Shown piece by piece: positions 7,072-59,103 of a stretch of DNA of 64,000 nt. Each line of letters starts with the position of its first letter. Within the stretch, counting starts at the first letter, position 1. The DNA comes from a virus. Its lineage: Duplodnaviria; Heunggongvirae; Uroviricota; Caudoviricetes. The DNA is taken from the IMG/VR virus record IMGVR_UViG_3300002498_000057; one strand, 5' to 3'. Below the pieces are notes generated by a model. It had not been told where the DNA came from. It searched no databases and was given only the letters and a program-made list of their open reading frames with translations. Both the position numbers and the translations under genes were made by a program.

Positions 7072-8979
<1,908 letters not shown>

Positions 8980-10397: not shown

Positions 10398-11468
10398 ATG
10401 GAAAGGTCATATTATTAGATACTGGGTGTTGATAAAACAGCTAATGTAGATTAGGTTAAAAAAGCTTATCGTAAACTAGCAATGTAGCACCATCCTGATA
10501 AGAACAATAATAATAAATAGTCATAGGATAAATTTAAATAGTTAAGTGAAGCATATGAAGTATTATCAGATCAACAAAAACGGCAACAATATGATATGTT
10601 TGGAAAAGGTGGAGTTAATACATCAAATATAAATGACATGTTTGGTCATGGATTTGGTTTTGAGTCTATATTTGATTCTATATTTAACCATAGAAATCCA
10701 TTTAATAGGCAACAACATCAACAACAACGAGTTGAAAAAAGTTAGGATCTTGTAATAGAAGTGTAGATAAATTTAACTGATACAGTATAGAATATTTAGA
10801 TTATTAAATAGATATAGTATAAAGTTAAGTGTAAAAAATGCAATGGAACAAAGTCATAGGATGGTAAAACTCATAATTGTACTACCTGTAATGGAACTGG
10901 TATAATTACAAGAGTTACTAATATGGGTTCAATGGTAATGCAACAGCAAATGACTTGTAATAGTTGCAATGGAGTTGGAAATGTTATATAGACCTTGTGC
11001 AGTAGTTGTAATGGAACTGGATTTTAGTTATAGAAAAAAAATATTAATATAACTATTCCAAGGGGTATAGAGTCTAATGTAAAACTTCAACTTAAAGACA
11101 TTGGAAATATTAATAAAGATAGGCCTGGTGATATAATTGTTATAATAAATGTAATTAATAACACAATATTTACTAGAGATAATAATAATTTAATATATAT
11201 TTACCCTATACAATATTATGATTTAATTCTTGGAACTAAGTTTATTTTAAAAACTATATATGATAAATAGCTTTAGATAACTATACCATCAGGGATTAAA
11301 GAGTCAATAAGTATACCTAATTAGGGCATATATAGTATATTTGTAAACAATAGTAATACTAGGGGTATATTACAAATAAATTTATAGTGTAAAATACCAT
11401 CAAAATAGTAGATTGAACAAAATTAGATTACATTATTATAGAACATAAAGGAGATCCGAAATGGATAA
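10398..11468 (+). CDS. dnaJ: co-chaperone DnaJ (J domain + Gly/Phe region + CxxCxGxG zinc-finger repeats), recoded
   Basis: SYY.ILGV..., [14 protein letters not shown] and [20 protein letters not shown]; four CxxCxG repeats ([31 protein letters not shown]); TAG at conserved Glu of DYYEILGV. Confidence 0.8.
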
Positions 11469-14059: not shown

Positions 14060-14131
14060 GGGTGACTCATCCAATGGTTAGGATCCTGGATTTCAACCCC
14101 AGTCATATGCGTTCGAGTCGTATGTCACCTG
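14060..14131 (+). tRNA. tRNA-Trp(UCA), opal-decoding
   Basis: Acceptor GGGTGAC/GTCACCT, anticodon loop TTTCAAC (UCA), T-loop TTCGAGT, discriminator G, CCA encoded. Confidence 0.85.
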
Positions 14132-14618
14132 CCATATTTTTTTAAATTAAAATAATAGAGGGTATTTAATGGAGCACAGATAGCATATTGTATTTGATGA
14201 TATGTATAATAATTATAAAATAATTCAATATGCATATTATTAGCCAACGAATATTAATAGATATGGTTTACATTACTTAGATATATAGAAAACAATAATT
14301 ATTAATAATTATACTAAGTTTGTATTTAAGATCCATTTAAATAATATATCTTTTACAAAATACAATAAAGATAAATTTATGTTATCTATAGTAAAAGTTG
14401 TTGATATTTTTGCAAATCATACTATAGAATTTCCAAGTATACTTATAAAAATATAGAATCCAAAAGAAGTTTAGAAGTATGTTGAATTTGATTGTAAAAA
14501 TCTTAAAATTGATAAATTAAAAGGTTTATTTGATAATATAGATATAGTGATTAATAAGTTTTTATAGCTATATAAATAGCCGTATATACTAAGTTAAAAA
14601 TGATAAAGAGGGGGTGTT

Positions 14619-17325: not shown

Positions 17326-17397
17326 GGAGTTATCGTTTAATGGCTAGGACCGCAGATTCTAAACCTGCAGATCGGGGTTCGATCCCCCGTAACTCTA
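17326..17397 (+). tRNA. amber-decoding tRNA(CUA) with Glu/Gln-type body (probable tRNA-Glu(CUA))
   Basis: Acceptor GGAGTTA/TAACTCT, D-stem GTTT/GGAC (U11-A24, U13-G22), anticodon loop TTCTAAA (CUA), 4-nt variable loop AGAT with A46, T-loop TTCGATC, CCA encoded. Confidence 0.85.
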
Positions 17398-17605
17398 CCA
17401 GATTCATAACCTATTTTTATGTGGGTTGGGTAGCTAAGGAGTATTAAAGAGGTAATATTACTTTAATAAAAACCACTTAAGGGATAATTAATATTTTTAG
17501 TGTAGCAGGTCAATTTCTAAAAATATTGAGTTATTCAAAATCTCCTAAATGAATCTTTTATTTACCTCAGGTATCACAATGGTTAGTGAGTCTGAGCTTA
17601 TTTAT

Positions 17606-18127: not shown

Positions 18128-18484
18128 GGGGATGAAATGGATTCGACATAGTGAATAGGATAGAGAAACGAGTAGAGAATGATTGTGATACTCTCAAAAC
18201 TCAATTAAAGTTAAAATAGTTAACGACAACTTACTACAAGCTGCTTAATTGCAGACTATCATAACTGAGGTTCTCTGATTTGTAGATTATGATAGTAAGA
18301 CCATAATCAGACTTATCCAATAAGATAGTCTTAGTAATTGGATATAGTATACAAGGCATTACATAATTTAGGTTTGCACAATTGTCCTTCTTATGTGATT
18401 ATTAAACAATTATGCTATACTCGTAAGTGATTTCTTGAAAGTAAGCATTATGGACCCGAGTATCGAAACTCGGCATCTCCACCA
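18128..18484 (+). ncRNA. ssrA: tmRNA (SsrA)
   Basis: 5' GGGGATGAAATGGATTCGAC and tRNA-like 3' end GGACCCGAG-TATCGAAA-CTCGG-CATCTCC-A-CCA; internal tag frame (V)NDNLLQAA-TAA. Confidence 0.8.
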
Positions 18485-19387: not shown

Positions 19388-19408
19388 CCAATTATTTTCA
19401 TATTTTTA

Positions 19409-19446
19409 AAAATAATTGTGATAATTTCTAAAGTTGTGGATATAAT
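19409..19446 (+). promoter_or_regulatory. conserved promoter motif copy 6
   Basis: TTGTGA 19416-19421, 19-nt spacer, TATAAT 19441-19446. Confidence 0.6.
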
Positions 19447-19481
19447 AATATTAGATTAAGAAAATATAAGAGGTTGCAAAA

Positions 19482-19751
19482 ATGGGAAGATACGAATGTT
19501 GTAATTCATATGGCTGTTCTGCAGGATATTGTCAAGGTGTGGCTAGAATTAAAACTAAATATACCTTATCACAAGCATTAGAATGTATGCGAGATAATAT
19601 TACAATGATTAATAGCGCATACGATAATGAATATATTATTACAAAGATTTTGGATAAAGATGTTCTTGTCGACGTTACAGATTCTGATAATTATATTTAT
19701 GAAACTGAACTAGATTTACTTGAGCTTGAAGCTGTTTGGTATGTTAAATAA
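19482..19751 (+). CDS. hypothetical Cys-rich protein
   Basis: ORF with SD AGAGGT, TAA stop. Confidence 0.5.
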   Translation: MGRYECCNSYGCSAGYCQGVARIKTKYTLSQALECMRDNITMINSAYDNEYIITKILDKDVLVDVTDSDNYIYETELDLLELEAVWYVK

Positions 19752-19762
19752 AAATATTTTAA

Positions 19763-19897
19763 CGTGGTGTAGATAATAGTTACTTCGTTCGTTAAACGAC
19801 TGGTTGGTGGTTCAAGTCCATCCATGATGACATTAACATCATGTAGCTCAATTGGCAGAGCAGTACAGAACTATTGTTGCTTGTTCCCGTTATTTTT
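19763..19897 (+). ncRNA. Y-RNA-like unit A (YrlA-like: terminal stem + permuted tRNA-like module)
   Basis: 5' GATAATAGTTAC pairs with 3' GAACTATTGTTGC. Internal T-arm GGTGG-TTCAAGT-CCATCC, closed acceptor-like hairpin CATGATG-ACATTAA-CATCATG and D-arm GCTC-AATTGGCA-GAGC. U-rich 3' tail. Confidence 0.55.
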
Positions 19898-19906
19898 AAA
19901 TTTTTT

Positions 19907-20006
19907 AGTGTAGCGCAGATAATAGATACTTCGGATTAATAGGTTCAACTCCTATATTAGCTTCGGCTATGATATAAATCTATTGTCGTTTATTCTCACT
20001 AATTTT
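19907..20006 (+). ncRNA. Y-RNA-like unit B (YrlB-like, shorter)
   Basis: 5' GATAATAGAT pairs with 3' ATCTATTGTC; internal T-arm ATAGG-TTCAACT-CCTAT and TAGC-UUCG-GCTA hairpin; 3' tail GTTTATTCTCACTAATTTT. Confidence 0.5.
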
Positions 20007-20030
20007 AAAAGTATAATATAAATAATAATT

Positions 20031-20174
20031 TAGTGTAGTGTAAATAATAGCTACTTCGATAATAACCCGTTGGTCAGTGGTTCGAATCCATTCGTGAGGT
20101 AATTCTCTCGTAGCTCAGCTGGTAGAGCAATGGGCACAGATAAAACTATTATTAATTGTTCTCACTAATTTTAA
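20031..20174 (+). ncRNA. Y-RNA-like unit C (YrlA-like)
   Basis: 5' AAATAATAGCTAC pairs with 3' ACTATTATT; internal T-arm CAGTGG-TTCGAAT-CCATTCG and D-arm GCTC-AGCTGGTA-GAGC; same 3' tail motif as unit B. Confidence 0.55.
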
Positions 20175-20180
20175 ATTTTA

Positions 20181-20260
20181 ATGTATGGTGTAAATTAAAG
20201 ATACTTCGTTTAATTGAAACAAACATCATGAATCTTTAGTTGATTGTCCCTACATTTTTT
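20181..20260 (+). ncRNA. Y-RNA-like unit D (short)
   Basis: Shares the 5' motif ATGGTGTAAATTAAAGATACTTCG and the 3' motif GATTGTCCCTACATTTTTT. Confidence 0.4.
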
Positions 20261-20262
20261 AA

Positions 20263-20336
20263 TACATGGTGAAGATTAGAGCTACTTCGTGGTAGACAAA
20301 AGACTCTTATCGTTTATTCCTGTATTATTTTGTTTT
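20263..20336 (+). ncRNA. Y-RNA-like unit E (short)
   Basis: 5' ACATGGTGAAGATTAGAGCTACTTCG; 3' TATCGTTTATTCCTGTATTATTTT. Confidence 0.4.
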
Positions 20337-20342
20337 AGTTAT

Positions 20343-20411
20343 ATGCATGGTGAAAAATAAAGTTACTTCGCTGAATAGAAATACAACTTTATTTGCTTAT
20401 TCCTGCATTTT
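20343..20411 (+). ncRNA. Y-RNA-like unit F (short)
   Basis: 5' ATGCATGGTGAAAAATAAAGTTACTTCG; 3' TTTGCTTATTCCTGCATTTTTT. Confidence 0.4.
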
Positions 20412-20434
20412 TTAATAATACTGTTGGAGAAATA

Positions 20435-20929
20435 ATGGACATTGATAAAATAGTTGAAAGTATTAATTAGGTTAACAAACTTAAATGTAATAGACTTATA
20501 CCAATTTTTAAAAAGGTATTATAGTTATAGGGTGATATTTAGTTAAGTGTCCAAATTGCAAGTTCTAATGTAGATAATTACAATCGATACAAATTAACTG
20601 ATGTACCATATTATAATACATATATAATTTTTTATATTACATCAATTAATAGTTTATATAAATTAAAAATAAATAGTATAGTTAATATTTATAAATTATT
20701 ATTTAAGCCTTGGTTAATATATTTTAATGCTGATGGTATATAGTATTCACCGATTGGTAAAAATAATTTTTATTCTATTAGTAGTCTAAATTTAAAATAG
20801 CTGAAACTAAATGATGTATTAGAATAGTTAAATAAATCTGGTGAAGATATTGTTAAAATATTTATTGAAGATAATAAGCGAATATTTGCTCCAAATTTAT
20901 TAAAACGGTTAAAACTTGATAATAAATAA
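20435..20929 (+). CDS. hypothetical protein (recoded)
   Basis: SD GGAGAAATAATG; 10 in-frame TAG; TAA stop. Confidence 0.35.
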
Positions 20930-20962
20930 AAAAATTACTACTAATCTTAAAAGGAGATTGCT

Positions 20963-22330
20963 ATGTCGAAAGTTAATGTAAAGGTTGCTTATCCAAATCC
21001 TAAAACACATGGAGATGGTATTGCGTCAAAACTTACTAAGTTAGAAGAACTTCGTAGAAGTGTATTATCTAATATGCTTTGGGAAAATGAATTTTATGAA
21101 GACGGCGAAAGTATTGCAACTAGAATAACCAATTTAGCGAATACTGTTGATCCTAACAAGGTAGCTGATTTGGCTATTGAAGCAAGAGAACAAATGAAGT
21201 TAAGACATGTACCATTATTGTTATGTCGTATTCTTGCAAAAAGAGGTTATAAGGTAGCAAATACTTTAGCTAGAGTTATTCAAAGACCAGATGAACTTAC
21301 TGAATTTTTAGCTATTTATTGGAAAAATGGCAAAGAACCTTTATCAGCTCAAGTTAAGAAAGGACTAGCGTTAGCATTTACAAAATTTGATGAATATCAA
21401 TTAGCTAAATATAATAGAGATGAAAATATTAAATTAAAAGATGTATTATTTTTATCCCATGCAAAACCCCTTACTGATGACCAAGCAAATGTCTGGAAAA
21501 GATTAATTGATGGTACCATAGAAACTCCAGACACCTGGGAAGTAGCATTATCAACTGGTAAGGATAAGAAAGAAACTTTTGAAAGACTTATTACTTCAAA
21601 AAAATTAGGCGCATTAGCGTTAATACGTAACTTAAGAAAGATGGAAGAATCAAAAGTTGACAATAATATTATAAAACAAGCATTACTAGATATGAAAGTT
21701 GATAGAGTATTACCATTTAGATTCATTGCGGCAGCAAAACATGCTCCAAGATTTGAGCAGGATCTTGAACAAGCAATGTTTAAGTGTCTTAGTAATGGTA
21801 CTAAGTTACCTGGTAAAACTATTTTAATAATAGATATTTCTGGTAGTATGCATGGTCAATTATCATCTAAATCTGAAATGAGTAGATATGATGCTGCTAA
21901 TTCATTAGCTATTCTAGTAAGGGAAATGTGTGAAAATCCCGTAATATATGCTACAGCTGGAAATGACGGTAGAAGAATTCATGCAACAGCTTTAGTTCCA
22001 AACAGACGTGGATTTGCATTGCCAGACGCTATTATGAACATGAATAGTACTCTTGGTGGTGGTGGAATATTCTTAAAGCAAGTAATGGATTATGTATATG
22101 ATAAAGAGCATGATGCAGATAGAATTATAATTATTACAGATGAACAAGATTGTGATAATAGTAACGTAAATGCACCTGCAAATGCTAATGCCTTTGGGAA
22201 ACAAAATTATATTATAAATATTGCTTCATATAATAGAGGTATAGCATATAATAAAAAATGGATCCATATTAGTGGATGGTCAGAAGCGGTATTAAATTAT
22301 ATAGCACAATATGAGTTAATGGGTAATTAA
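20963..22330 (+). CDS. rsr: Ro60 ortholog (TROVE domain + C-terminal vWA/MIDAS), Rsr-like
   Basis: N-terminal LTKLEELRRSVLSNMLWENEFYEDG (TROVE); C-terminal ILIIDISGSMHG MIDAS motif; SD AAGGAG; no TAG/TGA. Confidence 0.8.
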   Translation: MSKVNVKVAYPNPKTHGDGIASKLTKLEELRRSVLSNMLWENEFYEDGESIATRITNLANTVDPNKVADLAIEAREQMKLRHVPLLLCRILAKRGYKVANTLARVIQRPDELTEFLAIYWKNGKEPLSAQVKKGLALAFTKFDEYQLAKYNRDENIKLKDVLFLSHAKPLTDDQANVWKRLIDGTIETPDTWEVALSTGKDKKETFERLITSKKLGALALIRNLRKMEESKVDNNIIKQALLDMKVDRVLPFRFIAAAKHAPRFEQDLEQAMFKCLSNGTKLPGKTILIIDISGSMHGQLSSKSEMSRYDAANSLAILVREMCENPVIYATAGNDGRRIHATALVPNRRGFALPDAIMNMNSTLGGGGIFLKQVMDYVYDKEHDADRIIIITDEQDCDNSNVNAPANANAFGKQNYIINIASYNRGIAYNKKWIHISGWSEAVLNYIAQYELMGN

Positions 22331-22331
22331 A

Positions 22332-22550
22332 ATGGGTGAGTATAACTTCCTTGATGATTATGATTCATGGGCAGACTATGTATATGCAATGATAGATAAT
22401 GAAGGTTTTGATTATTGCTTTGTAAATTATTCTAATTTTGATAATGTTGAAGATGAAAAATTTCATAAACTTAGAAAGAAATATTTAAAAGTTCAAAAAG
22501 AACTTAATGATTATATTGAACAAAATTTAAGTGAACTGGATAGTATTTAA
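22332..22550 (+). CDS. hypothetical acidic small protein
   Basis: ORF directly after rsr (stop/start TAAAATG overlap region). Confidence 0.4.
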   Translation: MGEYNFLDDYDSWADYVYAMIDNEGFDYCFVNYSNFDNVEDEKFHKLRKKYLKVQKELNDYIEQNLSELDSI

Positions 22551-22596
22551 GTAAAAAGTGTTTTTGTCGTTCACACTATAAATAAAGCGACTATAT

Positions 22597-22667
22597 TGCG
22601 GGGTAGAGGAGTGGTTTTTCGACGGCCTCATAAGCCATAGACGCAAATTCGAATTTTGCCCCCGCAA
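22597..22667 (+). tRNA. tRNA-Met(CAU), initiator-like
   Basis: Acceptor TGCGGGG/CCCCGCA, A11-U24, anticodon stem ACGGC/GCCAT with three consecutive G-C pairs, loop CTCATAA, T-arm GCAAA-TTCGAAT-TTTGC, discriminator A, no CCA. Confidence 0.7.
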
Positions 22668-25919: not shown

Positions 25920-25993
25920 AAGGGTGTCGGTTAATGGTTGACCAACAGTCTCCAAAACTGTATTTAATGCAGGTTCGACTCCTGTTCTGGGTA
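25920..25993 (+). tRNA. tRNA-Trp(CCA)-like, probable pseudogene/chimera (acceptor stem cannot pair)
   Basis: D-arm GGTT-AATGGTT-GACC, anticodon stem ACAGT/ACTGT, loop CTCCAAA. 3' 30 nt GCAGGTTCGACTCCTGTTCTGGGTACCA identical to the 3' end of the 23436 tRNA, but the 5' strand AAGGGTG is not complementary. Confidence 0.45.
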
Positions 25994-40391: not shown

Positions 40392-41691
40392 TAATTATAT
40401 TTATCAATTATAGAATGAAACGAATCAATAGTACAAATTTAGATTATTGAATGGAAAATAGATTGGATAGTATTAGATAACTTGACCATAGATTAAATAG
40501 TTATTAAAAGATCCAAGAGATGTTAGAGCAATAAAACGTGATTGAGATGGATATAAATTTGTAGTATAGTATTAGTTATAGAATAATAATAATGATAGTA
40601 TAAATAAATAGTTAGTAACTTTATCAAGACAAAAACAGAGATTTGCTGATGTAAATAGAATTTAGCGCCAAAAAGTTAGATAGATGAGTAGAGTTATAAA
40701 TACTATATAGTAGTATAGTAATTCTTTAAAATAGGTATTTGCACACTATGATATGACTTAGTTTATTGGTAATAATGATAGTCATATATTTACATAGAAT
40801 AATGTTGGAATTATACACTTAACTGACTTACATTTTAATGAAATAGTTACATAGGTTTTAGATAACTAGTATAATTTTAAAATTGCCGCAAAAAGATTAT
40901 CTAAATTTATTAGTAAGAGTAAATAGTATTTTAAATTAAATAATGTTGATACAGTATTGATTGCAATGACTGGTGATTTAATAAACTCAGATCGACGATT
41001 AGAATAGTTATTATCTCAATCTACAAATAGAAGTAAGGCTACTTTCTTAGCTGTAAATATCATAAATAATATTATAATTTAGTTATCTTATTAGTTTAAT
41101 AGTATTTATATCTCATGTGTATCTGGTAATTAGAGTAGATTAAGTAAGGAAGTTGGATGGACATAGATGATGGCTTCTGATAATTATGACTTTACTATAT
41201 TTAATATTTTAAAATATTTATATAGAAATAGTAAAAATATAATATTTACTGCTGGTGATTATTATTAGCATATTGTCACTATTGGTTCTAATAGAGATGA
41301 TATTAATATTTTATTATTACATGGAAACGTAAATAAATTAGCTGGTAATGTATAGTATGGTGTTCAGCAAATAATGGGTAAATATAGTTCTAGAAATATT
41401 CATATACACTTTATGTTATTTGGTCATTATCATTCATGTAGAATAGGAGATAATTTTGCAAGAGGTGGATCACTATCAGGAGCAAATGGGTATAGTGATA
41501 AGTGTTTGCAAATGACAACTAGAGCTAGTCAAAATATTCATATTATAAATAGATAGAATGGGTAGGTTGATTCAATTAAGATTGATTTGCAAAATACTGA
41601 TGGATATTAGGGATATTTAATTGATTAGACATTATATAATGAATTACTGCACACTAGTGAATGGAATAAATAGCATAAGATAATAATTTAA
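40384..41691 (+). CDS. calcineurin-like metallophosphoesterase (recoded)
   Basis: Motifs IIHLTDLHFN, MTGDLINSD, LLLHGNVN and FGHYHSCRIGDNFARGG in one frame with many TAG; contains the ORF-track fragment 41374-41556. Confidence 0.6.
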
Positions 41692-42855: not shown

Positions 42856-43881
42856 ATGAAAATATTATACAAGATTAAAGCTGGTTCATATTTATATGGA
42901 CTAACCACACCTACCTCAGATATAGATTATGTTGGGGTATACTTAGAAGATACATTTAGTGAACATATGGATATTTTTAATTCTAAAGATGAAATTGATC
43001 TTTCAGTAATATCTAAATTAAATAATGGTAAAAATAGTGAAGATGCAATAGATGAAAAATACTATAGTCTTAAAAAATTTTTAAAGTTGTGTAGTGATTG
43101 TAACCCAAATATTATAGAGCTCTTATATGCGCCGGCCGATTGTATTGAATATGTAGATACTATATTTAAATCTCAAATTCTTGACCATCCAGAATTATTT
43201 ATAAATATAAAATTAGTTGATAGATTTATTGGATATGCAAAAAGTCAAGAGCAAAAAAGTTATACTAAGTCTGAAAACTATATAATACTAGATAAATTAA
43301 AACAGGGTATATTAAAAGTATTAAAGCATTCTAGTTATTGGGTTTTAAATGAATTGTCCCCCGCTAGAGATTTATTTAGCCGACAATCATTTATGGCACC
43401 GTTTCCAGAATTTGATAACATTACTATTACTCCAATTACAATTAATCATACTGCTACTAATATTGAGACAATATATGAAATAGGTGATATGAAATTTTCA
43501 TCTGGATTACATCTTAAAAATGTTATTTTACAAATTGAAGATAGGTTTAAACGAGCTTCACATAGAGTAGATGGAATATTAATTAATAAATACGAACCAA
43601 AGTTTTTATCACATACAGTACGGTTGTTAGATGAAGGCTGTCAATTATTAACTAAAAAACGTATAGATTTTCCATTTACTGAACAATCACTAGCAGACAT
43701 TATGAATATTAAATTGGGGTTAACGGCAGTTCAAGATATTCCAAATATTGTCAATAAATATAAAGATACTTTAACAGAATTAGAGAAACTTGATAACAAT
43801 ATTCCAGACAAACCAGATTATATTTGTATAAATAAAGCATATTTAACTTTAATAAGAGGTATTTACAATGAAAATATTTAA
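42856..43881 (+). CDS. Pol-beta superfamily nucleotidyltransferase
   Basis: GSYLYGLTTPTSDIDYVGVY matches G[SG]-x9-13-DxD of minimal NTases and CD-NTases; 341 aa. Confidence 0.55.
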   Translation: MKILYKIKAGSYLYGLTTPTSDIDYVGVYLEDTFSEHMDIFNSKDEIDLSVISKLNNGKNSEDAIDEKYYSLKKFLKLCSDCNPNIIELLYAPADCIEYVDTIFKSQILDHPELFINIKLVDRFIGYAKSQEQKSYTKSENYIILDKLKQGILKVLKHSSYWVLNELSPARDLFSRQSFMAPFPEFDNITITPITINHTATNIETIYEIGDMKFSSGLHLKNVILQIEDRFKRASHRVDGILINKYEPKFLSHTVRLLDEGCQLLTKKRIDFPFTEQSLADIMNIKLGLTAVQDIPNIVNKYKDTLTELEKLDNNIPDKPDYICINKAYLTLIRGIYNENI

Positions 43882-44129
43882 GATGGTTGGTAAAATAATA
43901 TTGATTGTATGGCTAATTATAACAGCAATTTGTCTTATACCGGGTGCAATTTGTTTTGGTATTTTGATTTTACTTGAATCTATATTTAAGGTAAATACGA
44001 AAATAATGAAACATCGTAACGTCAGTTAAATAATTGTAATAAACCATAAATAGACAAGTATAATTTAAGTAAAGGAGATATAAAATGAAGTTTATTAAAT
44101 ACAATGAAATTGAAAACTCTACAAACAAA

Positions 44130-45134
44130 ATGATTTATGAATTTAAACAATCAACATTGTATAATCCAACTGATATTTGAGTTGTAACCATCAAAATTCA
44201 TGGAAGCAATTTCCAAATTATAAGAGCCGACGATGGACAATTGGTGCCAGCTAAAAGAACTAATACTCTGGAAATGACATCTTCTTTCTTTAACTTTCAA
44301 TCAATATTTGATAGATATGATTATAACAAATTAATGAATAATATCTTAGAATTTGCAAAAATACACTATCCAGATTTTTTGGGTGGAATAAGTATTCATG
44401 GAGAGCTTTGTGGTGGTCATTATCCTGGAGCAGAAGTAGTACCAAATGCAAAAAAGGTTCAAAAAGAAGTAGCATACTCAAATAATACAGAATTAATAGT
44501 ATTTGATATACGACTAACCTCGACTGATAATGATGATTACTATATATTTATTCCGCATTATCAAATAATTAAGCTTTGCAACGATTGTAATATCCCAGTA
44601 GTTCCTATTATATTTGAAGGTACTTTAGATGAATGTTTAAAGTGGTCTAGCGAACATAATGCTGACCCCTGTGAAATATGGAAAATATTTGGTATGGATC
44701 ATGAAGTAGAAAATAACATTCGTGAGGGTCATGTTATTAAACCGGCTATTAAGACAATATTTAAGGGCCAACATCGTATGATATTTAAAGATAAGAATGA
44801 TAAATTTAAAGAAAATAAAGGTAGCAAAGAAAAAAATGCAGTACCAAAAATTACTTACAGCGATAATATGATTTATATCTTAGACAATATTGATACTATG
44901 ATTTGCATTAATAGGTTTAATTCTGTTACTTCAAAATTTGGTGAATATAGTATTAAAGATTTTAGACTATTAATGTTATTTATGATTGAAGATATTTATG
45001 ATGAACTTAATAGATCTATAGATTTAAAAGAATTATTTGATACTTTAACTAATGTTGAAAAGAAAGAATTGAATGATATTTTGAATAAAAAGATTGCTAG
45101 TTTTATGGGCGCAAATAAAAAAGAATTATTTTAA
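44130..45134 (+). CDS. Rnl2-family RNA ligase (start uncertain; one in-frame TGA=Trp at 44178)
   Basis: DIWVVTIKIHGSNFQ aligns to T4 Rnl2 GEWVAREKIHGTNFS (motif I KxHG, W from TGA); motif IV EGHVIKP; motif V KIFKDKNDKF. Confidence 0.7.
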
Positions 45135-45152
45135 ACAATAGGAGATTAAAAA

Positions 45153-45353
45153 ATGGAAGTATTATTTATTATAATATTCATCATAGTTTTTAATATTATA
45201 ATTGCTTGTGGTGCAATTGGAATATTAGCAGAAAGTTGTCATTTTAATTATAACTTAAAAAAATGGTTTTACATTTTATTAATTACTGGAATATTTGGAG
45301 CGTTATATCTTTGGATTAAAGAAGTGTTTGGATTAATAAATGAATTAGATTAA
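45153..45353 (+). CDS. hypothetical small membrane protein
   Basis: SD GGAGAT; hydrophobic. Confidence 0.35.
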   Translation: MEVLFIIIFIIVFNIIIACGAIGILAESCHFNYNLKKWFYILLITGIFGALYLWIKEVFGLINELD

Positions 45354-45606
45354 AATTACTATACAAGAGTGTTAGTATAATAAGATTGATAATATTTTAT
45401 ATATACCATTAAGTTATTTCTAGCATGCATATGGTAAATCGTTTCCAAAGAAAATAGTTGTAAATAATTTAAAAAATACATGTAGAAATATTTATACCTT
45501 TAAAAGCTTTGGGTATAATAATAAAAAGGAATTAGAATATGTAATTTATTATAATAATATTATGGATAATAAATTGTGTATTTATCAAGATAAGGAAATA
45601 TAAAAG

Positions 45607-45885
45607 ATGGAATTTAGTATTAATCAGTTTGTCGTAAGTGAACAAGATGGTATTTATCAAGATTTATCCAAATTAGATAATAATAAATCTCAAATTGTAT
45701 CATTTTATTTAATAGACTTTGCAACTAAAGATTATAAAATATTATTTATATGCCATAAAATAAATGAAAACAACGGGTGTATTCAAAATATTGAATATTT
45801 TGGCAATAAAGTAATTGATCTTAAGACTAATGAATGTGTAGAACAATTACCAATGACCCTAAAAATAATTATATACAATAAATAA
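45607..45885 (+). CDS. hypothetical protein
   Basis: ORF with SD AAGGAAAT. Confidence 0.4.
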   Translation: MEFSINQFVVSEQDGIYQDLSKLDNNKSQIVSFYLIDFATKDYKILFICHKINENNGCIQNIEYFGNKVIDLKTNECVEQLPMTLKIIIYNK

Positions 45886-45896
45886 GGAGATATACA

Positions 45897-46091
45897 ATGA
45901 GTGATAACCAACAAATATCTGGTAGTGGAATAGGGTGTGCAACACTGCTATTTTTTATATTTTTAGTATTAAAGTTGACTAATGTAATTACTTGGTCTTG
46001 GTGGTGGATATTTGCACCATTATGGGGGACGGCACTACTAGTTATTATTTGTTTAATAGTAATATATCTATTTTTGAAAAAGTATCAATAA
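45897..46091 (+). CDS. hypothetical small membrane protein
   Basis: SD AAGGAGAT; two TM segments. Confidence 0.35.
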   Translation: MSDNQQISGSGIGCATLLFFIFLVLKLTNVITWSWWWIFAPLWGTALLVIICLIVIYLFLKKYQ

Positions 46092-46819
46092 TGTTAGATA
46101 CATCTATTAAAATTGTAGTATTGACTGGCTCTGGAATAAGTGTAGAGTCTGGTTTATCTACATTTAGAGGCCTGGGTGGTATTTGGGATAAATATGATCC
46201 AAATAAAGTTTGTTCTTTATCTGGATTTATCCATGATCCAATAACGGCATGGAAATTTAATTCAGAACTATATCTACAATATGCAATTGCAAAATCAAAC
46301 ATTGGTCATAAATCATTAGTTAAATTACAATATTATTTATATAACGGCAAACTTACTATCATTACTCAGAATATAGATGGATTGCACCAAGCCGCTGGTA
46401 GTGAAAATTGTATTGAAATGCATGGTAATATTCATAGAACCAGATGTAATGGCTGTAACTATATCACAAACACAAATAGTATTGTATGTAAATTTATGAG
46501 TAATAGTACTACACCAATATGTCCAATTTGTGGAGATTTACTAAGGCCTGATGTTGTAATGTTTGAAGAAATTCCAAAATATAAACAAGCTATAGATATG
46601 GATATTTTAAATTGTGATTATTTTATTCAGATTGGAACTAGTGGTAAAGTTAGACCAGCTAGTACTCTTATTTATATAGCAGAAAGTATTGGAGCTAAAT
46701 CAATAATATTAAATAAAGAAAAACCTGATAACATTACAGAAAATAGTCAATTTTATCAATGTAATAGTGGTAATGATATTGATAAATATATCCAATTACT
46801 TATCAATGGAGAGATATAA
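46092..46819 (+). CDS. Sir2-family NAD-dependent deacylase (sirtuin)
   Basis: VVLTGSGISVESGLSTFRG, TQNIDGLHQAAGS, HGNIHRTRCNGCNY...CPICG, LRPDVVMFEE. Confidence 0.75.
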
Positions 46820-47022
46820 ATGAAAAAATATATAACGAAATCAATAGTAATAAAGAAGAAATAGTTAATTGATTTACTTAAATAGAAGTATATTTTACCT
46901 AATAAAATAAATATTGAATATGATATTGATTCAGATGGATCATATGACTAGGGCACATATACTGAATGGGTAAAGTCTATTACTATTTCTTGGAATGAAA
47001 CTTTAATTTAAAAACATGGAGT

Positions 47023-47232
47023 ATGTTAATGTATTACTGTAAATATTATGAGGGTCTATGCTGGCATATTGATAATCCAACTTGTATGTGTATGCAGTGG
47101 TATCGCGGGTATAGTGAAATATATGATTATAGTACATGTAAGAATTTATATAAAATACCAACTAGTCAAATAGAAGATGTTAAATATTTATTAAATAACT
47201 CTTATGTTACATTTACTAAAGTGTTATTATAG
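47023..47232 (+). CDS. hypothetical small Cys-rich protein
   Basis: ORF. Confidence 0.3.
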   Translation: MLMYYCKYYEGLCWHIDNPTCMCMQWYRGYSEIYDYSTCKNLYKIPTSQIEDVKYLLNNSYVTFTKVLL

Positions 47233-47377
47233 TATTTACTTAAACATCCAACTAAGAACTTATCACAAAAACAAAAAGATAAATTAATTTAGTCAATACA
47301 AACTGCTAAATTAGAGGCAGAGTTTAAAAGAAAATGTTTTGGTGATCAAGGCAATCCAGAATATTTTGGACACAATT

Positions 47378-47414
47378 AAATAATTGTGATAATTTTAGAG
47401 CTACAGTATATAAT
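47378..47414 (+). promoter_or_regulatory. conserved promoter motif copy 11
   Basis: TTGTGA 47384-47389, 19-nt spacer, TATAAT 47409-47414. Confidence 0.6.
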
Positions 47415-47446
47415 AATCTTAATTAAACTTTTAAAGAGGTGGTTAT

Positions 47447-47680
47447 ATGAATAAGCAATATAGATGCTATGAATGTGAAACTATTTTTGAAAATCCAGAT
47501 TGTAATTATTATGAAGGTGAACGATCTGAAGGGGTTGCAGAACCAGATGACTATGAAGACATTTGTCCAAATTGTGGAAGTACAGACTTTGAAGAAATAA
47601 ATACTTGTCTATACTGTGGAGTTGAAATTCCTATTGATGAAGAATATTGCATAAATTGTCAAGAAGATGATGATGTATAA
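47447..47680 (+). CDS. hypothetical acidic zinc-ribbon protein
   Basis: CYECE...CPNCG...CLYCG...CINC; SD AGAGGTGG. Confidence 0.45.
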   Translation: MNKQYRCYECETIFENPDCNYYEGERSEGVAEPDDYEDICPNCGSTDFEEINTCLYCGVEIPIDEEYCINCQEDDDV

Positions 47681-47987
47681 TGTGAAGCAATTATCTATAG
47701 ATTTACTGGACAAGCCAATATTATTAAATGATGTTGTAGCAGTTATTAAAGATAATAGTTTAAATTTATATAAAATTATTGGTGAAACTGGAAAAAATAA
47801 GTCGATGCTTCAATGTTATCCTATTATTAAAATAGATAACGATTATTATACAAAAATTAGAATGAAAAGTATTAAAAAGGATGATGATATTATAAAAATT
47901 ATAATAAATAATGTAGATCCTCCAATTAAATTTGATCAGTTTAATGACTGCTGCATAGACTCAGAAAATATGCCAAGAGCAAAATAA
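47667..47987 (+). CDS. hypothetical protein
   Basis: ORF overlapping the previous stop. Confidence 0.4.
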   Translation: MMMYNVKQLSIDLLDKPILLNDVVAVIKDNSLNLYKIIGETGKNKSMLQCYPIIKIDNDYYTKIRMKSIKKDDDIIKIIINNVDPPIKFDQFNDCCIDSENMPRAK

Positions 47988-48004
47988 ATAAAAGGAAAAA
48001 CAAA

Positions 48005-48796
48005 ATGTTAAAAAAACTAATAGCTATATCTATTGGAGTACTAGTATTATTACTGTTTTTAAGTGGTAGCTGTTCTATAGTTAAACCTGGTTATCGTGGA
48101 GTTAGAATTACAATGGGTGCTGTATCACCACAGGCTTTAGATGAAGGTATACACTTGAAATTTCCACTAACTCAAAGAATTGTAAGTGTAGAAGTTAGAG
48201 TTAGTCAAGCAGAATTTAAGGGACTGGCTGCTGCAAGTGCATCAATGCAAGATGTATTTAGTGATGTAAACGTAAGCTTTCATATAATGCCAGAGAAGGT
48301 ACCAAACTATTATAAGAGATATGGAAAAGATCCTACTACAGTAATCAATTTAATGTTATCAGCTAAATTGCAAGAAATTGTAAAGTCAACTACTAATATG
48401 TATTCAACTGAAGAGTTATTGAGACAGCGATTAGCTATACGCGATACTATTTATAATAGACTAAATAAAGTTGCAATTAAACAAGATATTATTATTGATG
48501 AGTTTAGTATGACGAACTTCAGATTTTCAACGTCGTATCAACTGGCTATTGAAGAAAAGCAAGTTATGGAACAAAGAGCTGAGACCGCAAGACGTGCTAA
48601 AGAAGTTGCGACTCAAGAAGGTGAAGCTAAAATTATTAGTGCAAGAGCTGAAGCAGAATCTAATAAATTAAGACAAGTATCTATAACTCCACAATTAATT
48701 AGATATGAAGAAATCATGGTACTTAAATCTAAATGGGACGGTAAATTACCACAAGTTACAGGTGGAGCTATACCATTACTAAATTTAGGACAATAA
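48005..48796 (+). CDS. SPFH/band-7 (prohibitin/HflC-like) protein with N-terminal signal/lipobox-like LSGSC
   Basis: VKPGYRGVRITMGAV...GIHLKFPLTQRIVSVEVR; C-terminal coiled-coil region typical of SPFH. Confidence 0.7.
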   Translation: MLKKLIAISIGVLVLLLFLSGSCSIVKPGYRGVRITMGAVSPQALDEGIHLKFPLTQRIVSVEVRVSQAEFKGLAAASASMQDVFSDVNVSFHIMPEKVPNYYKRYGKDPTTVINLMLSAKLQEIVKSTTNMYSTEELLRQRLAIRDTIYNRLNKVAIKQDIIIDEFSMTNFRFSTSYQLAIEEKQVMEQRAETARRAKEVATQEGEAKIISARAEAESNKLRQVSITPQLIRYEEIMVLKSKWDGKLPQVTGGAIPLLNLGQ

Positions 48797-48891
48797 AAAA
48801 TATAACTATTTTAAATATGGTATAGTATGAAAATATTATACCATGTTTTTTCTGTTTAACAATATTGTTTATTAGTAGTTATAATAATTTG

Positions 48892-48930
48892 AAAACTAAT
48901 TGTGATAATTTAAACTTATGTAATTATAAT
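48892..48930 (+). promoter_or_regulatory. conserved promoter motif copy 12
   Basis: TTGTGA 48900-48905, 19-nt spacer, TATAAT 48925-48930. Confidence 0.6.
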
Positions 48931-49305
48931 TACAATATATTAAGAAATACGAGGTTACACTATGATAAATAGCTTTATGGATGCATATAAATACGAGAAA
49001 GATGGATGGGAATTGTATTACGATGGTATGCATAATGATATTGTTGTAAGAGTAATTAATGATGATTATAGATTATCACATGATCAACTTAAACAACTTG
49101 AAGATTTCGTAAAAAAGATATAAGGAAAACTAAAAATGGTTATCACAACATTAATTACAATACTATCACTAGTCTATGCCATTCACTATACACGAAAGTC
49201 TTATATTGCGATTAAGATGAAGGACTATGGTTTATATATTAGTTGTACGTTTATGAGTATTGTTATGATTATGTGTTTTATTAAAGGAACTATGGCTGTT
49301 ATATA

Positions 49306-49512
49306 ATGATTGTTTATAGATTATTTAAAGTATTCTCGCCAGTTGTGACAACAACGAAAAGAGAGAAAATTGTATTTATTCATGAGTATAAAGATGAAGA
49401 CAGTGCAAATGATGGCTTAAAGAGACAAACTGATAAGCTTGGAAAGAATAACTTTGTGTGGTATGAAGTGCATAAGCTTGATACAGAAACAAAGAAGTAT
49501 GTTGAGGATTAA
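49306..49512 (+). CDS. hypothetical small protein
   Basis: ORF. Confidence 0.35.
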   Translation: MIVYRLFKVFSPVVTTTKREKIVFIHEYKDEDSANDGLKRQTDKLGKNNFVWYEVHKLDTETKKYVED

Positions 49513-49794
49513 ATATCATGAAGGTGAAGGAATTGATTGACCAATTGTCACGAATGGATCCAAATAAAGAGTTTGATATATGTGTGGTTAGTGCGGGATG
49601 GGATTGCGGGTAATATTGTAAATTGAAGCATCAGATTAATAAGATAAGGAAACGAGATTTTATAGATTTGAAAGTACTTGAGATAGTGATACTAGATAAA
49701 GATAGAGAAACCTATTGAGCAACATAAAAATATAATTTGCTTTATTGGGAAAGTGGATTATTATATAGTGTAGAGCAAACAAAAGACATAGAGG

Positions 49795-51018
49795 ATGAGT
49801 AAAATGATAGAAATTACCGGTAAACATGGCTCTGCCAAAATCTTTACCAACAACATTGAGGAACAAGCCATTTCTCAGCTTTACAAAATTTTAAATAGCG
49901 AAGTTGCTATTGGTGCTAATTTGAGAATCATGCCAGATTGTCACGCTGGTGCAGGTTGTGTTATTGGTACCACTATGAAAATAACTGACAAAGTTATACC
50001 CAATTTTGTAGGAGTAGATATTTCATGTGGTGTTTTAGTTCAACAAATCAAAGATACTCATATTGAATTGGAAAAATTAGATAAAGTTATTCATCGAAAC
50101 GTTCCAAGTGGATTTGCTATCAATAACAAACCTCATCGTTGGGCTAATGATTGCCGAATTGGTGAATTAAAATGTAAAGACTTTGTAAATCTTAAACGTG
50201 CATATCTTTCTATCTCATCTCTTGGTGGAGGTAATCATTTTATATCCATAGAAAAAGATGATAACAATTGTCATTATTTAATAATTCATACTGGCTCAAG
50301 AAACATGGGCAAGCAAATAGCTGAATGCTATCAACAGGCTGCATATGATTTAATGACTAGCAAGAGAGAAATCTCTGATGAATTAATTAAGAAGCTTAAA
50401 AAAGAAGGTCGTGAAAAAGATATTAAAACTGAGTTGTCTAAAATTCAAATCATTCAAGTTGAGAAGTCTATGGCATATTGCTCTGGACAGTTAATGGATG
50501 ATTATTTGCATGATATGGCTATTGCCCAAGAATATGCTTCTCTTAATCGCAAGGCTATTGCAGATACTATTCAATGTGGTATGAGATGGAAGGTTGAAGA
50601 TGAATTTGAAACACTTCATAATTATATTGAAATGGATACTATGATATTACGTAAGGGAGCCGTATCTGCTAAGAAGGGTGAGAGATTAATAATACCTATT
50701 AATATGCAAGCGGGTAGTATTATTGCCACTGGGAAGGGCAATGAAGACTATAATTATTCTGCACCACATGGCGCCGGTAGACTTATGTCTCGTAAAGGAG
50801 CTAAGGAATCGTTATCAATGGACGACTTCAGAGAATCAATGAAAGGTATCTATACTACTTGTGTAATGAAAGATACTTTAGATGAATCCCCTATGGCGTA
50901 TAAGCCTATGCAAGAGATTATAGATAACATAGGTGATACTGTAGATATTGTTAAGATCGTTAAACCAGTATATAATTTTAAGGCTTCGGAAGAAGATGAT
51001 AGAAAGAAGAGGAAGTAA
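49795..51018 (+). CDS. rtcB: RtcB-family RNA 3'-phosphate/2',3'-cyclic-phosphate ligase
   Basis: MPDCHAGAGCVIGT, GVDISCGV, GGGNHF, APHGAGR; 407 aa; SD GAGGAT. Confidence 0.85.
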   Translation: MSKMIEITGKHGSAKIFTNNIEEQAISQLYKILNSEVAIGANLRIMPDCHAGAGCVIGTTMKITDKVIPNFVGVDISCGVLVQQIKDTHIELEKLDKVIHRNVPSGFAINNKPHRWANDCRIGELKCKDFVNLKRAYLSISSLGGGNHFISIEKDDNNCHYLIIHTGSRNMGKQIAECYQQAAYDLMTSKREISDELIKKLKKEGREKDIKTELSKIQIIQVEKSMAYCSGQLMDDYLHDMAIAQEYASLNRKAIADTIQCGMRWKVEDEFETLHNYIEMDTMILRKGAVSAKKGERLIIPINMQAGSIIATGKGNEDYNYSAPHGAGRLMSRKGAKESLSMDDFRESMKGIYTTCVMKDTLDESPMAYKPMQEIIDNIGDTVDIVKIVKPVYNFKASEEDDRKKRK

Positions 51019-58326: not shown

Positions 58327-59103
58327 ATGATTAAAAAACAAAACGCTGGAATATATGATCAATTCTACACCAAGCCATAGGTAGCTAAAGCTTTAATTAA
58401 AAATATAGATATATCAAAGTATGAGTTAATAATATAGCCATCTGCTGGTAATGGTAGCTTTAGTAAGCAAATAAAGAATTGTATGGCTTATGATATAGAC
58501 CCAAAAGATTAGTCAATAATTAAGGGTGATTATCTATAGATGCAGATCATAACTAATCCATAGAAAACTTTAGTTATTGGTAACCCCCCCTTTGGTAGGC
58601 AATCCTCTCTAGCATTTAAGTTTATAAAAAAGTCCATGCTAATTGCCGATACGGTGGCATTTATATTACCAAAATCCTTCAGAAAGGTATCATATATAGA
58701 TAGAGTACCATTAACTCACTAGTGTGTCTTATAGATTGATCTGGATGATAATTCATTCATTGTAGATAGTAACTAGTACTCTGTTCCATGTGTCTTTCAA
58801 ATATGGGAAAGATGTACTATAAACAGAATAAAACATAGTAACTATCATACAAATGATTTTTAGTTCTGTAGTAAGAAATAGGCGCAATTATCAATTAGAC
58901 GTGTTGGGTGGTATGCTGGAATTGTGTATAGTGATATAGATAAATCATAGAGCTCATTTTATTTTGTGAAGTAGAAGAATAAAGATATTAATTATATCAA
59001 ATAGAAGTTATAGAGCATTGATTATAATGATGTGAAGGATAATTCAGCAGGAATACGCACCATATCAAAAAGATAGATAATAATGAAATACGTGGGAGAA
59101 TAA
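58327..59103 (+). CDS. N6-adenine DNA methyltransferase (recoded)
   Basis: FYTKP.VAKALI (motif I region) and VIGNPPFGRQSS (motif IV NPPF); about 14 in-frame TAG. Confidence 0.65.

Follow-up and report, generated by a model that had tools for sequence, protein, structure and literature searches.

An array of six candidate Y-type small RNA genes upstream of a Ro60-type gene in an amber-recoded jumbo phage

Results

The array and the Ro60-type gene

We analysed a 64,000-nucleotide (nt) stretch, hereafter the window, of the IMG/VR record IMGVR_UViG_3300002498_000057, a virus of the class Caudoviricetes. Six related units (A–F) lie head to tail on its + strand at 19761–20414, upstream of a gene for a Ro60-type protein (Table 1). 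The units are 69–142 nt long and separated by spacers of 1–24 nt, and their shared 5′ and 3′ blocks were found by a repeat finder without prior assumptions (families D1–D8). A covariance model (R1), built from units D, E and F together with three minimal units of the related contig L022, returned exactly six matches in the window, namely units A–F, with the next best match at E = 1.6. The units outside the training set scored 46.1 bits (A, E = 1.6e-7), 53.1 bits (B, E = 4.7e-9) and 41.0 bits (C, E ≤ 2e-6), and the training members D, E and F scored 73.5, 81.0 and 84.9 bits, respectively. With a broader covariance model rebuilt from 67 matches (R2), the scores were 60.3 (A), 58.0 (B), 50.7 (C), 65.1 (D), 68.3 (E) and 75.6 bits (F), with E-values of 2.8e-21 to 3.8e-13. 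Both the repeat finder and R1 agree with the sequence-only reading of this DNA, which had described six tandem units with related 5′ and U-rich 3′ motifs. All unit counts given here come from the covariance models; a regular expression with an 8-bp stem and a looser descriptor produced many false positives in coding regions, including 70 minus-strand matches, and served as leads only. The pairwise identity of the six paralogs was only 39–75%, indicating old copies and not recent duplications.

Table 1 Coordinates of the array, the Ro60-type gene and other features of the window.
Feature	Position	Strand	Description
Unit A	19761–19898	+	Candidate YrlA-type Y RNA gene; 5′ motif GGUGUAG
Unit B	19907–20007	+	Candidate intermediate Y RNA gene; scaffold and T-arm only
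Unit C	20032–20173	+	Candidate YrlA-type Y RNA gene; scaffold as in unit B
Unit D	20182–20261	+	Candidate minimal (YrlB-like) Y RNA gene; scaffold only, 30-nt A-rich apical loop
Unit E	20263–20331	+	Candidate minimal Y RNA gene; 5′ motif GGUGAAG
Unit F	20344–20414	+	Candidate minimal Y RNA gene; outer stem UGCA/UGCA
Intervening open reading frame	20435–20929	+	164 codons, seven in-frame TAG; between array and TROVE gene
Ro60-type protein gene	20963–22330	+	TROVE HEAT-repeat ring and vWA domain; 455 amino acids; no TAG codons
RlaP nucleotidyltransferase	starts 42856
Rnl2-type ligase	starts 44274
Sir2	starts 46022
Band-7/SPFH protein	starts 48005
RtcB	49795–51018
Rnl1-type ligase	60821–61891

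The gene downstream of the array had been taken for a Ro60 ortholog, and this was borne out by a Pfam TROVE match with E = 7.9e-19 and 68.6 bits (cut-off 23); the vWA_Ro60 match, at 17.6 bits, was below its cut-off of 27.7. The MIDAS motif DISGS (residues 291–295) was invariant in 30 homologs, and the protein matched PHROG 850 "RNA-binding protein" (E = 2.4e-42). Its nearest solved relative in a phmmer search against the PDB was the Ro60 of Thermus phage phiLo (9KOP/9L5Y; E = 1.2e-22, residues 19–451). The AlphaFold2 (AF2) model of the protein had a predicted local distance difference test (pLDDT) score of 84.5 and matched every solved Ro60 in Foldseek, with template modelling (TM) scores of 0.62–0.70 and E-values of 1e-11 to 3.5e-18. 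The TM scores were 0.70 to 9KOP, 0.67–0.69 to Xenopus Ro60, 0.62 to Deinococcus radiodurans Rsr and, for Xenopus and human Ro60 together, 0.65–0.69. As modelled, the 455-amino-acid (aa) protein is a Ro60 fold. A 72-aa open reading frame (ORF; 22332–22550), whose ATG lies 1 nt past the TROVE stop codon, matched PHROG 17752 (unknown function; E = 3.5e-16) and was also called beside the gene on both contigs with an identical TROVE protein; its product may accompany the phage Ro60 in a conserved way.

The array had been described as lying immediately upstream of the Ro60-type gene, which needs correction: 549 nt separate the end of the array from the TROVE start codon, and an ORF fills this gap. 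It was called as a 164-aa gene on a European Nucleotide Archive (ENA) contig, showed no family match and no PHROG match, and was absent in L022, where the array runs up to a conserved TROVE leader and just 47 nt lie between the last unit and the TROVE ATG. The ORF is probably an insertion and not part of the ribonucleoprotein.

A common docking scaffold

All six units share one order of elements: an outer stem of 3–5 bp, a bulged U, two pairs, an asymmetric internal loop and an inner stem of 9–10 bp, followed by the heptamer UACUUCG, a variable apical part and, 3′ of the outer stem, a U-run. The outer stems include ACG/CGU, AGUG/CACU, GUA/UAC, ACA/UGU and UGCA/UGCA, and the two-pair clamp reads AG:CU in B and C and GG:CC in the other four units. 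The internal loop has YGNA(R) on its 5′ strand and seven nt such as CGUUUAU(U) on its 3′ strand. TTTT occurs no more than 12 nt after the outer stem in all six units, the same-strand background being 4.7% of 10-nt windows. The terminal stem proposed earlier, with pairing of the AUAAUAG/CUAUUGU type, is predicted in every unit and covaries among the paralogs, the inner stem being AUAAUAG/CUAUUGU in A, AUUAAAG/CUUUAGU in D (two compensatory swaps relative to A) and AAUAAAG/CUUUAUU in F.

In unit A, the outer stem pairs 19762–19764 with 19888–19890 (ACG/CGU), U19765 is bulged, 19766–7 pair with 19886–7 (GG:CC), and the inner stem pairs 19773–19781 with 19869–19877; UACUUCG spans 19781–19787 and the U-run extends to 19897. 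The scaffold of unit B consists of AGUG/CACU, the bulged U, AG:CU, the inner stem GAUAAUAGAU/AUCUAUUGUC and UACUUCG. Unit F has a perfect inner stem of 10 bp (AAAUAAAGUU/AACUUUAUUU) and is 82% identical to unit u2 of L022, with compensatory changes in the stem.

Unpaired positions were also conserved among 67 relatives. The bulged U was present in 66/67 and was followed on the 5′ strand by GG and then Y-G-N-A-G (G10, A13); U-A-C-U-U-C after the inner stem was conserved in 62–67 of the 67 (U 67/67, A 62/67, C 67/67). The 3′ loop strand G-Y-U-U-R-U-U before CC was invariant too. The 5′ motifs of the window units are GGUGUAG, AGCGCAG, AGUGUAA, GGUGUAA, GGUGAAG and GGUGAAA. They stand where GNCGAAN0-1G, the Ro60 contact proposed by Chen et al. 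(PMC4201824), would be expected, and differ from it by at least one base. Among the relatives, the consensus GG-Y-G-N-A-G has C in 34/67 and A in 31/67, and about half carry the exact GNCGAA motif. Judged from sequence, GGYGNAG is a relaxed, one-base variant of the Ro-binding motif GNCGAA(N)G.

The YUAC element within UACUUCG was found in six of six units, as UUAC (A, F), AUAC (B, D) and CUAC (C, E). Its UA corresponds to a conserved dinucleotide that, in the crystal structure of YrlA, introduces a kink into the equivalent of the anticodon stem (bioRxiv 10.1101/312249). The presence of UA in the minimal units as well, which have no tRNA-like part, suggests that it is a feature of the scaffold rather than of the tRNA mimic.

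Covariation supported the terminal stem strongly, both in the units and in their homologs. In the main alignment of 67 units, 92.9% of the stem cells were paired versus 62.6% in shuffles, and the covariation score was 0.82 versus 0.22 in shuffles (0/500 reached it) and 0.08–0.13 with the partners slid. Double-sided changes were seen in 15 of the 16 pairs of the bipartite stem. Because this alignment had been fitted to the model, RNAalifold was also run on a plain, unfitted MAFFT alignment of 24 long units, and it agreed, independently predicting both stems of the scaffold as well as the T-arm and the acceptor-like hairpin, with compensatory changes in 23/25 pairs.

Apical modules

The apical parts differ from unit to unit, and their inserts range from 11 to about 100 nt among the relatives. 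Units A and C were aligned by the Rfam YrlA model (RF02553; gathering score 69 bits) in a permissive E-value search, in keeping with the earlier description of a T-arm, an acceptor-like closed hairpin and a D-arm within them. Unit C was aligned over its full length (37.1 bits, E = 3.5e-6) and unit A at 19799–19864 (33.4 bits), covering model positions 24–84, that is, the T-arm, closed hairpin and D-arm core. In unit A, a V hairpin (19785–19799) precedes the T-arm (19806–19822; minimum free energy [MFE] fold), which directly adjoins a perfectly self-complementary acceptor-like hairpin of 7 bp (19823–19843); UA follows, and then the D-arm (19846–19861). Unit C, 76% identical to unit u3 of L022, carries the T-arm GUGGUUCGAAUCCAU, the acceptor-like hairpin CGUGAGG..CUCUCG and the D-arm GCUCAGCUGGUAGAGC. 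Unit B carries a T-arm-like hairpin (UAGGUUCAACUCCUA) and a GCUUCGGC tetraloop hairpin without a D-arm, as had been read from the sequence and as was seen in agreeing MFE and centroid folds. In D–F, which had been described as minimal, the scaffold is closed by short A-rich loops only, with a short apical hairpin (CUACU-UCGU-GGUAG) in unit E.

These YrlA scores are far below 69 bits, so that a default Rfam scan shows nothing: at gathering thresholds, no Y-type RNA was reported in the window or in 19 related loci. Of the two Rfam families suggested earlier for a comparison, YrlA was thus recovered below threshold in A and C, and Y_RNA gave no match among the units. The relatives in Caulobacter phage CcrColossus and Xanthomonas phage MET23-P3 were also sub-threshold in YrlA (30–52 bits).

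The tRNA-like core raises the question of an origin from tRNA genes, either decayed or permuted ones or tandem pairs in which the T-arm of one tRNA and the D-arm of the next mimic YrlA. Chen et al. cautioned about such dimeric tRNAs (PMC4201824), the window contains 28 tRNA genes on the same strand, GGYGUAG resembles tRNA positions 4–10, and the best Rfam tRNA match, at 19763–19830, reached 22.5 bits, below the threshold of 29. However, ARAGORN called no tRNA in 19391–22596, no anticodon arm follows the D-arm, and the segment from T-arm to D-arm is an acceptor-like helix closed by a loop and not two acceptor strands; in unit A, its perfect self-complementarity rules out an artefact of two adjacent tRNAs. 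Moreover, the scaffold is shared by three units without any tRNA-like part, shows covariation and accompanies TROVE genes in different phyla. We rejected both the tandem-tRNA and the tRNA-pseudogene readings on the closed hairpin, the silence of ARAGORN and the covarying, TROVE-linked scaffold, and consider an origin of this kind extremely unlikely.

In many long units of the relatives, UACU is followed by a V hairpin with a 4-bp stem (UCGN/NCGA) and a 7-nt loop (C-U-NNN-A-A), for example at L001 1237, L022 3382, L030 1431, L150 1905 and L151 1911. The loop has an anticodon-loop signature with a variable middle triplet (UGU, UCU, GCU, GUU, UUA and others). In the window, the V loop of unit A is UCGUUAA, which lacks U33, and a clear V hairpin is missing from unit C. 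The energies from MFE folding of the V region were too weak for a consistent definition of the hairpin, and the anticodon-loop-like pattern is given here as an incidental observation only.

Such mimicry could also mean that the RNAs mainly act alone, diverting tRNA-binding factors or tRNA-targeting nucleases of the host as decoys or sponges, and that Ro60 only stabilises them and is not tethered through them to effectors. The tRNA elbow mimicked by A and C, the anticodon-loop-like V hairpin of many relatives and the many tRNAs and RNA ligases of the phage, which fit pressure from tRNA-cleaving defences, are consistent with this. By contrast, half of the units (3/6) have no tRNA-like part, the V region of A and C departs from an anticodon loop as described above, no nuclease target was identified, and the most conserved portion of every unit is the docking scaffold and not the tRNA mimic. 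We regard a decoy function as unlikely.

Relatives and strand-specific linkage to TROVE genes

The exact TROVE protein was found on a 256,585-bp ENA contig, which identifies the virus as a jumbo phage. A nucleotide search of 19400–22600 against 50,697 phage records found nothing, so the phage lacks a close sequenced relative among them. The 5.5-kb Logan contig L022 encodes a TROVE ortholog with 82% identity and has five units directly upstream of it, two long and three minimal, whose stems differ from those of the window by compensatory changes (e.g. GAACCGAG/CUCGGUUC).

In 99 viral and metagenomic loci with TROVE homologs, R1 gave 110 matches, 109 of which were on the strand of the gene, and in 61 bacterial genome loci (Acidobacteriota, Caulobacterales and Hyphomicrobiales) all 70 matches were on that strand. 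R2 gave 177 matches in 41 sources (40 loci and the window), 177/177 on the gene's strand. Well over 100 loci, from metagenomes, phages and bacteria with 26% to 74% GC, thus have the scaffold next to a TROVE gene. By R2, eight units were found in CcrColossus and in an Acidobacteriaceae metagenome-assembled genome (MAG), seven in another locus, six in four loci and five in many, including the 43-kb phage MET23-P3; the 40 loci had partly been picked for many units, which biases this sample toward large arrays. Six units in one phage had been thought unusual, and with 5–8 in its relatives this does not hold: the array size is ordinary for the clade. Neither R1 nor R2 found a unit near the TROVE gene of Ralstonia phage RsoM2USA, the closest in a cultured phage. 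In L002 (5399–5815), L019 (5398–5886) and L108 (crAss-like phage cr106_1; 3945–4287), the units are downstream of TROVE on the same strand.

The subfamily is widespread, largely unannotated and missed at the curated threshold of Rfam YrlA. Y RNA annotation was absent from the five phage records inspected. In the CcrColossus array (L106 1222–2418), no unit is annotated as such, and a "tRNA-Gln" (L106 1631–1698) and a "rho-independent terminator" (1558–1573) of the record fall inside units. Chen et al. reported 355 YrlAs in 276 genomes (PMC4201824); we found no description of multi-unit Y RNA arrays in the literature searched, which did not cover the per-phage YrlA tables of Chen et al. 2014.

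These loci also bear on a reading of the units as cis-acting elements of a long tRNA/TROVE transcript, be it processing sites, attenuators, terminators or an autoregulatory leader for Ro60. Every unit forms a long, imperfect hairpin with a U-run behind it, the array shares its strand with the tRNA cluster and lies upstream of the gene, the 1–24-nt spacing leaves no room for separate promoters, and YrlA and YrlB of Mycobacterium smegmatis are cut from one precursor with rsr (PMC4201824). The sigma-70 promoter scan was at background (33 found versus 26.9 expected), as was the consensus terminator scan, which found none in the array. Yet terminators or processing sites need neither an invariant internal loop nor UACUUC nor a tRNA-like core, all kept from 26 to 74% GC, and arrays lie downstream of TROVE in L002, L019 and cr106_1. 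In the window, an unrelated ORF stands between the array and the gene and the terminator scan was empty over the array, while co-transcription followed by processing would fit genes for separate RNAs equally. We consider cis-acting elements quite improbable.

Interpretation

We propose that each of the six units encodes a different Y-type small RNA and that these RNAs are the partners of the phage's own Ro60, with a probability of roughly 0.8. Established here are the units themselves, the conservation and covariation of their structure and the fact that they are linked to TROVE genes in a strand-specific manner. The YrlA/YrlB-type architecture recognised earlier agrees with the sub-threshold YrlA matches (C 37.1, A 33.4 bits), the TROVE linkage on the gene's strand, the covariation and the Ro60 fold.

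Several points count against this proposal. None of the six units reaches the YrlA gathering score, and B, D, E and F have no YrlA match at all; the exact GNCGAA motif is found in 0/6 window units, with U for C, or U or C for A. Folding energies of single sequences were no better than those of shuffles (z −0.3 to −1.7), which is expected of AT-rich RNA, so that the structure rests on comparative data, and the 67-unit alignment was one fitted to the model. An unrelated ORF separates the array from the Ro60 gene, and no PNPase or other effector was identified in the 64 kb examined of a contig of at least 256 kb. Transcription and processing into discrete, separate RNAs is something we infer, and Ro60 binding is suggested only by the linkage and the motif resemblance.

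From D. radiodurans, Salmonella, M. smegmatis and phage phiLo, Ro60 is known to bind the stem formed by the ends of a Y RNA, and the distal module tethers an effector such as PNPase or gates the cavity (PMC4201824, PMC12135203). By analogy, the 5′ and 3′ ends of each unit would pair into a constant docking scaffold that Ro60 would bind, with GGYGNAG (5′) and GYUURUU (3′) as the strands of its internal loop and an inner stem, equivalent to the anticodon stem of YrlA, that would end in the UA "kink" dinucleotide and then CUUC. The apical modules, predicted as a full tRNA mimic in A and C (V hairpin, T-arm, acceptor-like hairpin and D-arm), a T-arm with a tetraloop hairpin in B and short A-rich loops in D–F, could then recruit another factor or gate the Ro60 cavity. 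A–C might engage a tRNA-binding enzyme, and D–F an exoribonuclease (host PNPase, for instance) or some other partner. Infection would then see the phage produce a set of Ro60 particles, each with its own equipment, that serve in RNA repair or quality control; effector identity and biological role are suggested here by analogy.

A bolder extension is that this Ro60 clade, in phages and bacteria, may as a so far unrecognised "Y RNA array" system normally use five to eight modular Y RNAs on one scaffold with interchangeable adaptors, which may be the tRNA mimic, the T-arm only, anticodon-loop-like V hairpins and A-rich minimal loops. The array would then equip Ro60 to police or protect the phage's pool of tRNAs and suppressor tRNAs against host tRNA-cleaving defences, together with RtcB, Rnl1, Rnl2 and RlaP. 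We hold this extension to be tentative and rather doubtful.

Only a handful of bacterial and phage Y RNAs have been studied. The literature consulted here describes two per species, and for D. radiodurans as many as four small RNAs ahead of rsr. Here, one Ro60 clade routinely has arrays of 3–8 diverged Y RNAs with a common scaffold and different apical modules. The evidence supports well that the window array is a good further example of the known Y RNA/Ro60 system and not a new kind. The gain for the window itself is modest: it adds a clean, well-supported case from a jumbo phage that is uncultured, amber-recoded and richly supplied with RNA-repair genes. More generally, the comparison yields a covariance model ready for annotating such units, a precise mutational target for the Ro60 contact (the bulged U, GG:CC, the GGYGNAG/GYUURUU loop and UACUUC) and a natural series of adaptor modules for asking which effectors Ro60 is tethered to.

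Comparison with known systems

YrlA and YrlB of Salmonella Typhimurium and M. smegmatis (PMC4201824; RF02553) likewise lie less than 4 kb from the Ro60 gene on the same strand, and have a protein-binding stem formed by the 5′ and 3′ ends with a purine-rich motif on its 5′ strand and UA atop the anticodon-stem equivalent. Units A and C have the YrlA module order of V, T, closed acceptor-like hairpin and D in common with them. A second, smaller RNA type is also found at YrlA/YrlB loci, some with a T-arm only (compare B) and some plain hairpins (compare D–F). The units differ from YrlA in scoring 33–37 bits against the Rfam threshold of 69, in having GGUGNAG or AGYGNAR instead of GNCGAA(N)G, and in conserving the 3′ loop strand GYUURUU and CUUC as well, whereas the 5′ strand only was reported for YrlA. 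There are six RNAs here versus two, and the loops of the minimal units are A-rich and not pyrimidine-rich.

Among phages, the Ro60 of the Thermus phage phiLo, with Yrl1 and Yrl2 (PMC12135203; 9KOP, 9L5Y), is likewise phage-encoded with Y-like RNA genes directly upstream; it was shown experimentally to bind the two upstream-encoded Y-like RNAs and to assemble with host PNPase (PMC12135203). The two proteins share about 22–24% identity. In phiLo there are two RNAs, found via the CGAA motif, and no tRNA-like module is mentioned (PMC12135203); phiLo is a small thermophilic phage, in contrast to the AT-rich, amber-recoded jumbo phage studied here. CcrColossus (NC_019406), listed among the YrlA-bearing phages, is a jumbo phage too. 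Its protein falls in the same TROVE clade with 46% identity, and its units, in tandem on the strand of the TROVE gene and upstream of it, have the same scaffold, GGGUGGCGUAG ... UACUUCG ... GYUUGUUCCCCC. It differs in having eight units (R2, visible by eye) versus six and in being GC-rich.

Several small RNAs, four of which have been seen, also lie upstream of rsr in D. radiodurans (Yrn1/Yrn2; RYPER, Ro60-Y RNA-PNPase), where the Y RNA stem binds Ro60, a distal module tethers the effector and a T-arm-like element is likewise present. Metazoan Y RNAs (hY1, hY3-5) resemble the units in their terminal stem, single bulged pyrimidine on the 5′ strand, short helix, asymmetric internal loop and 3′ U-run; they occur as two to four paralogs per genome, and the protein that binds them shares the fold (TM 0.67–0.69 to Xenopus Ro60). 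The units differ from them in lacking an Rfam Y_RNA match and in having U, not C, as the bulge. The metazoan RNAs have a different polymerase and 3′-end biology and no tRNA-like module.

Genomic setting

The window encodes a transfer-messenger RNA (tmRNA) besides its tRNAs, on the same strand as the array. It occupies 18128–18484 (Rfam 94.7 bits), inside the tRNA cluster and 1.3 kb upstream of the array, and was not listed by ARAGORN. RNA-repair and conflict genes are concentrated at 42856–51018 and 60821–61891. The tRNAs, tmRNA, RtcB, Rnl1- and Rnl2-type ligases and RlaP of this genome segment make it a setting that fits an RNA-maintenance role. The position given earlier for RtcB proved correct. 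The likeness then drawn to the Salmonella rsr-yrlBA-rtcBA operon went too far: rtcB is not adjacent here but 27.5 kb downstream, with many genes and tRNAs between and not in one operon, and the operon is therefore echoed at the level of gene content only.

The cluster contains duplicated tRNA species (Arg-TCT, Cys-GCA, Leu-TAG, Leu-TAA and Tyr-GTA), and the window has two suppressor-type tRNAs, at 17326–17400 and 14060–14134, one with the anticodon CUA and one with UCA. A partial match at 25929–25985 (Rfam tRNA model positions 10–63, 33 bits, no ARAGORN call) could represent either an unusual tRNA or a fragment of one.

TAG is a sense codon in a subset of genes: read-through raises the share covered by ORFs of 80 aa or more from 30% to 59%, versus just 30% to 33% for TGA, and the CUA anticodon fits amber recoding. 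TAG-containing examples are 7072–8979, 10398–11468, 20435–20929, 40684–41691 and 58327–59103, and the in-frame TAGs number 23 in a DnaK-like gene and 24 in a DnaJ-like gene. The genes for TROVE, RtcB, Rnl1, Rnl2, RlaP, Sir2 and Band-7 have no TAG codons and use CAA/CAG instead. Two gene classes are thus present in one phage, as in stop-codon-recoded phages.

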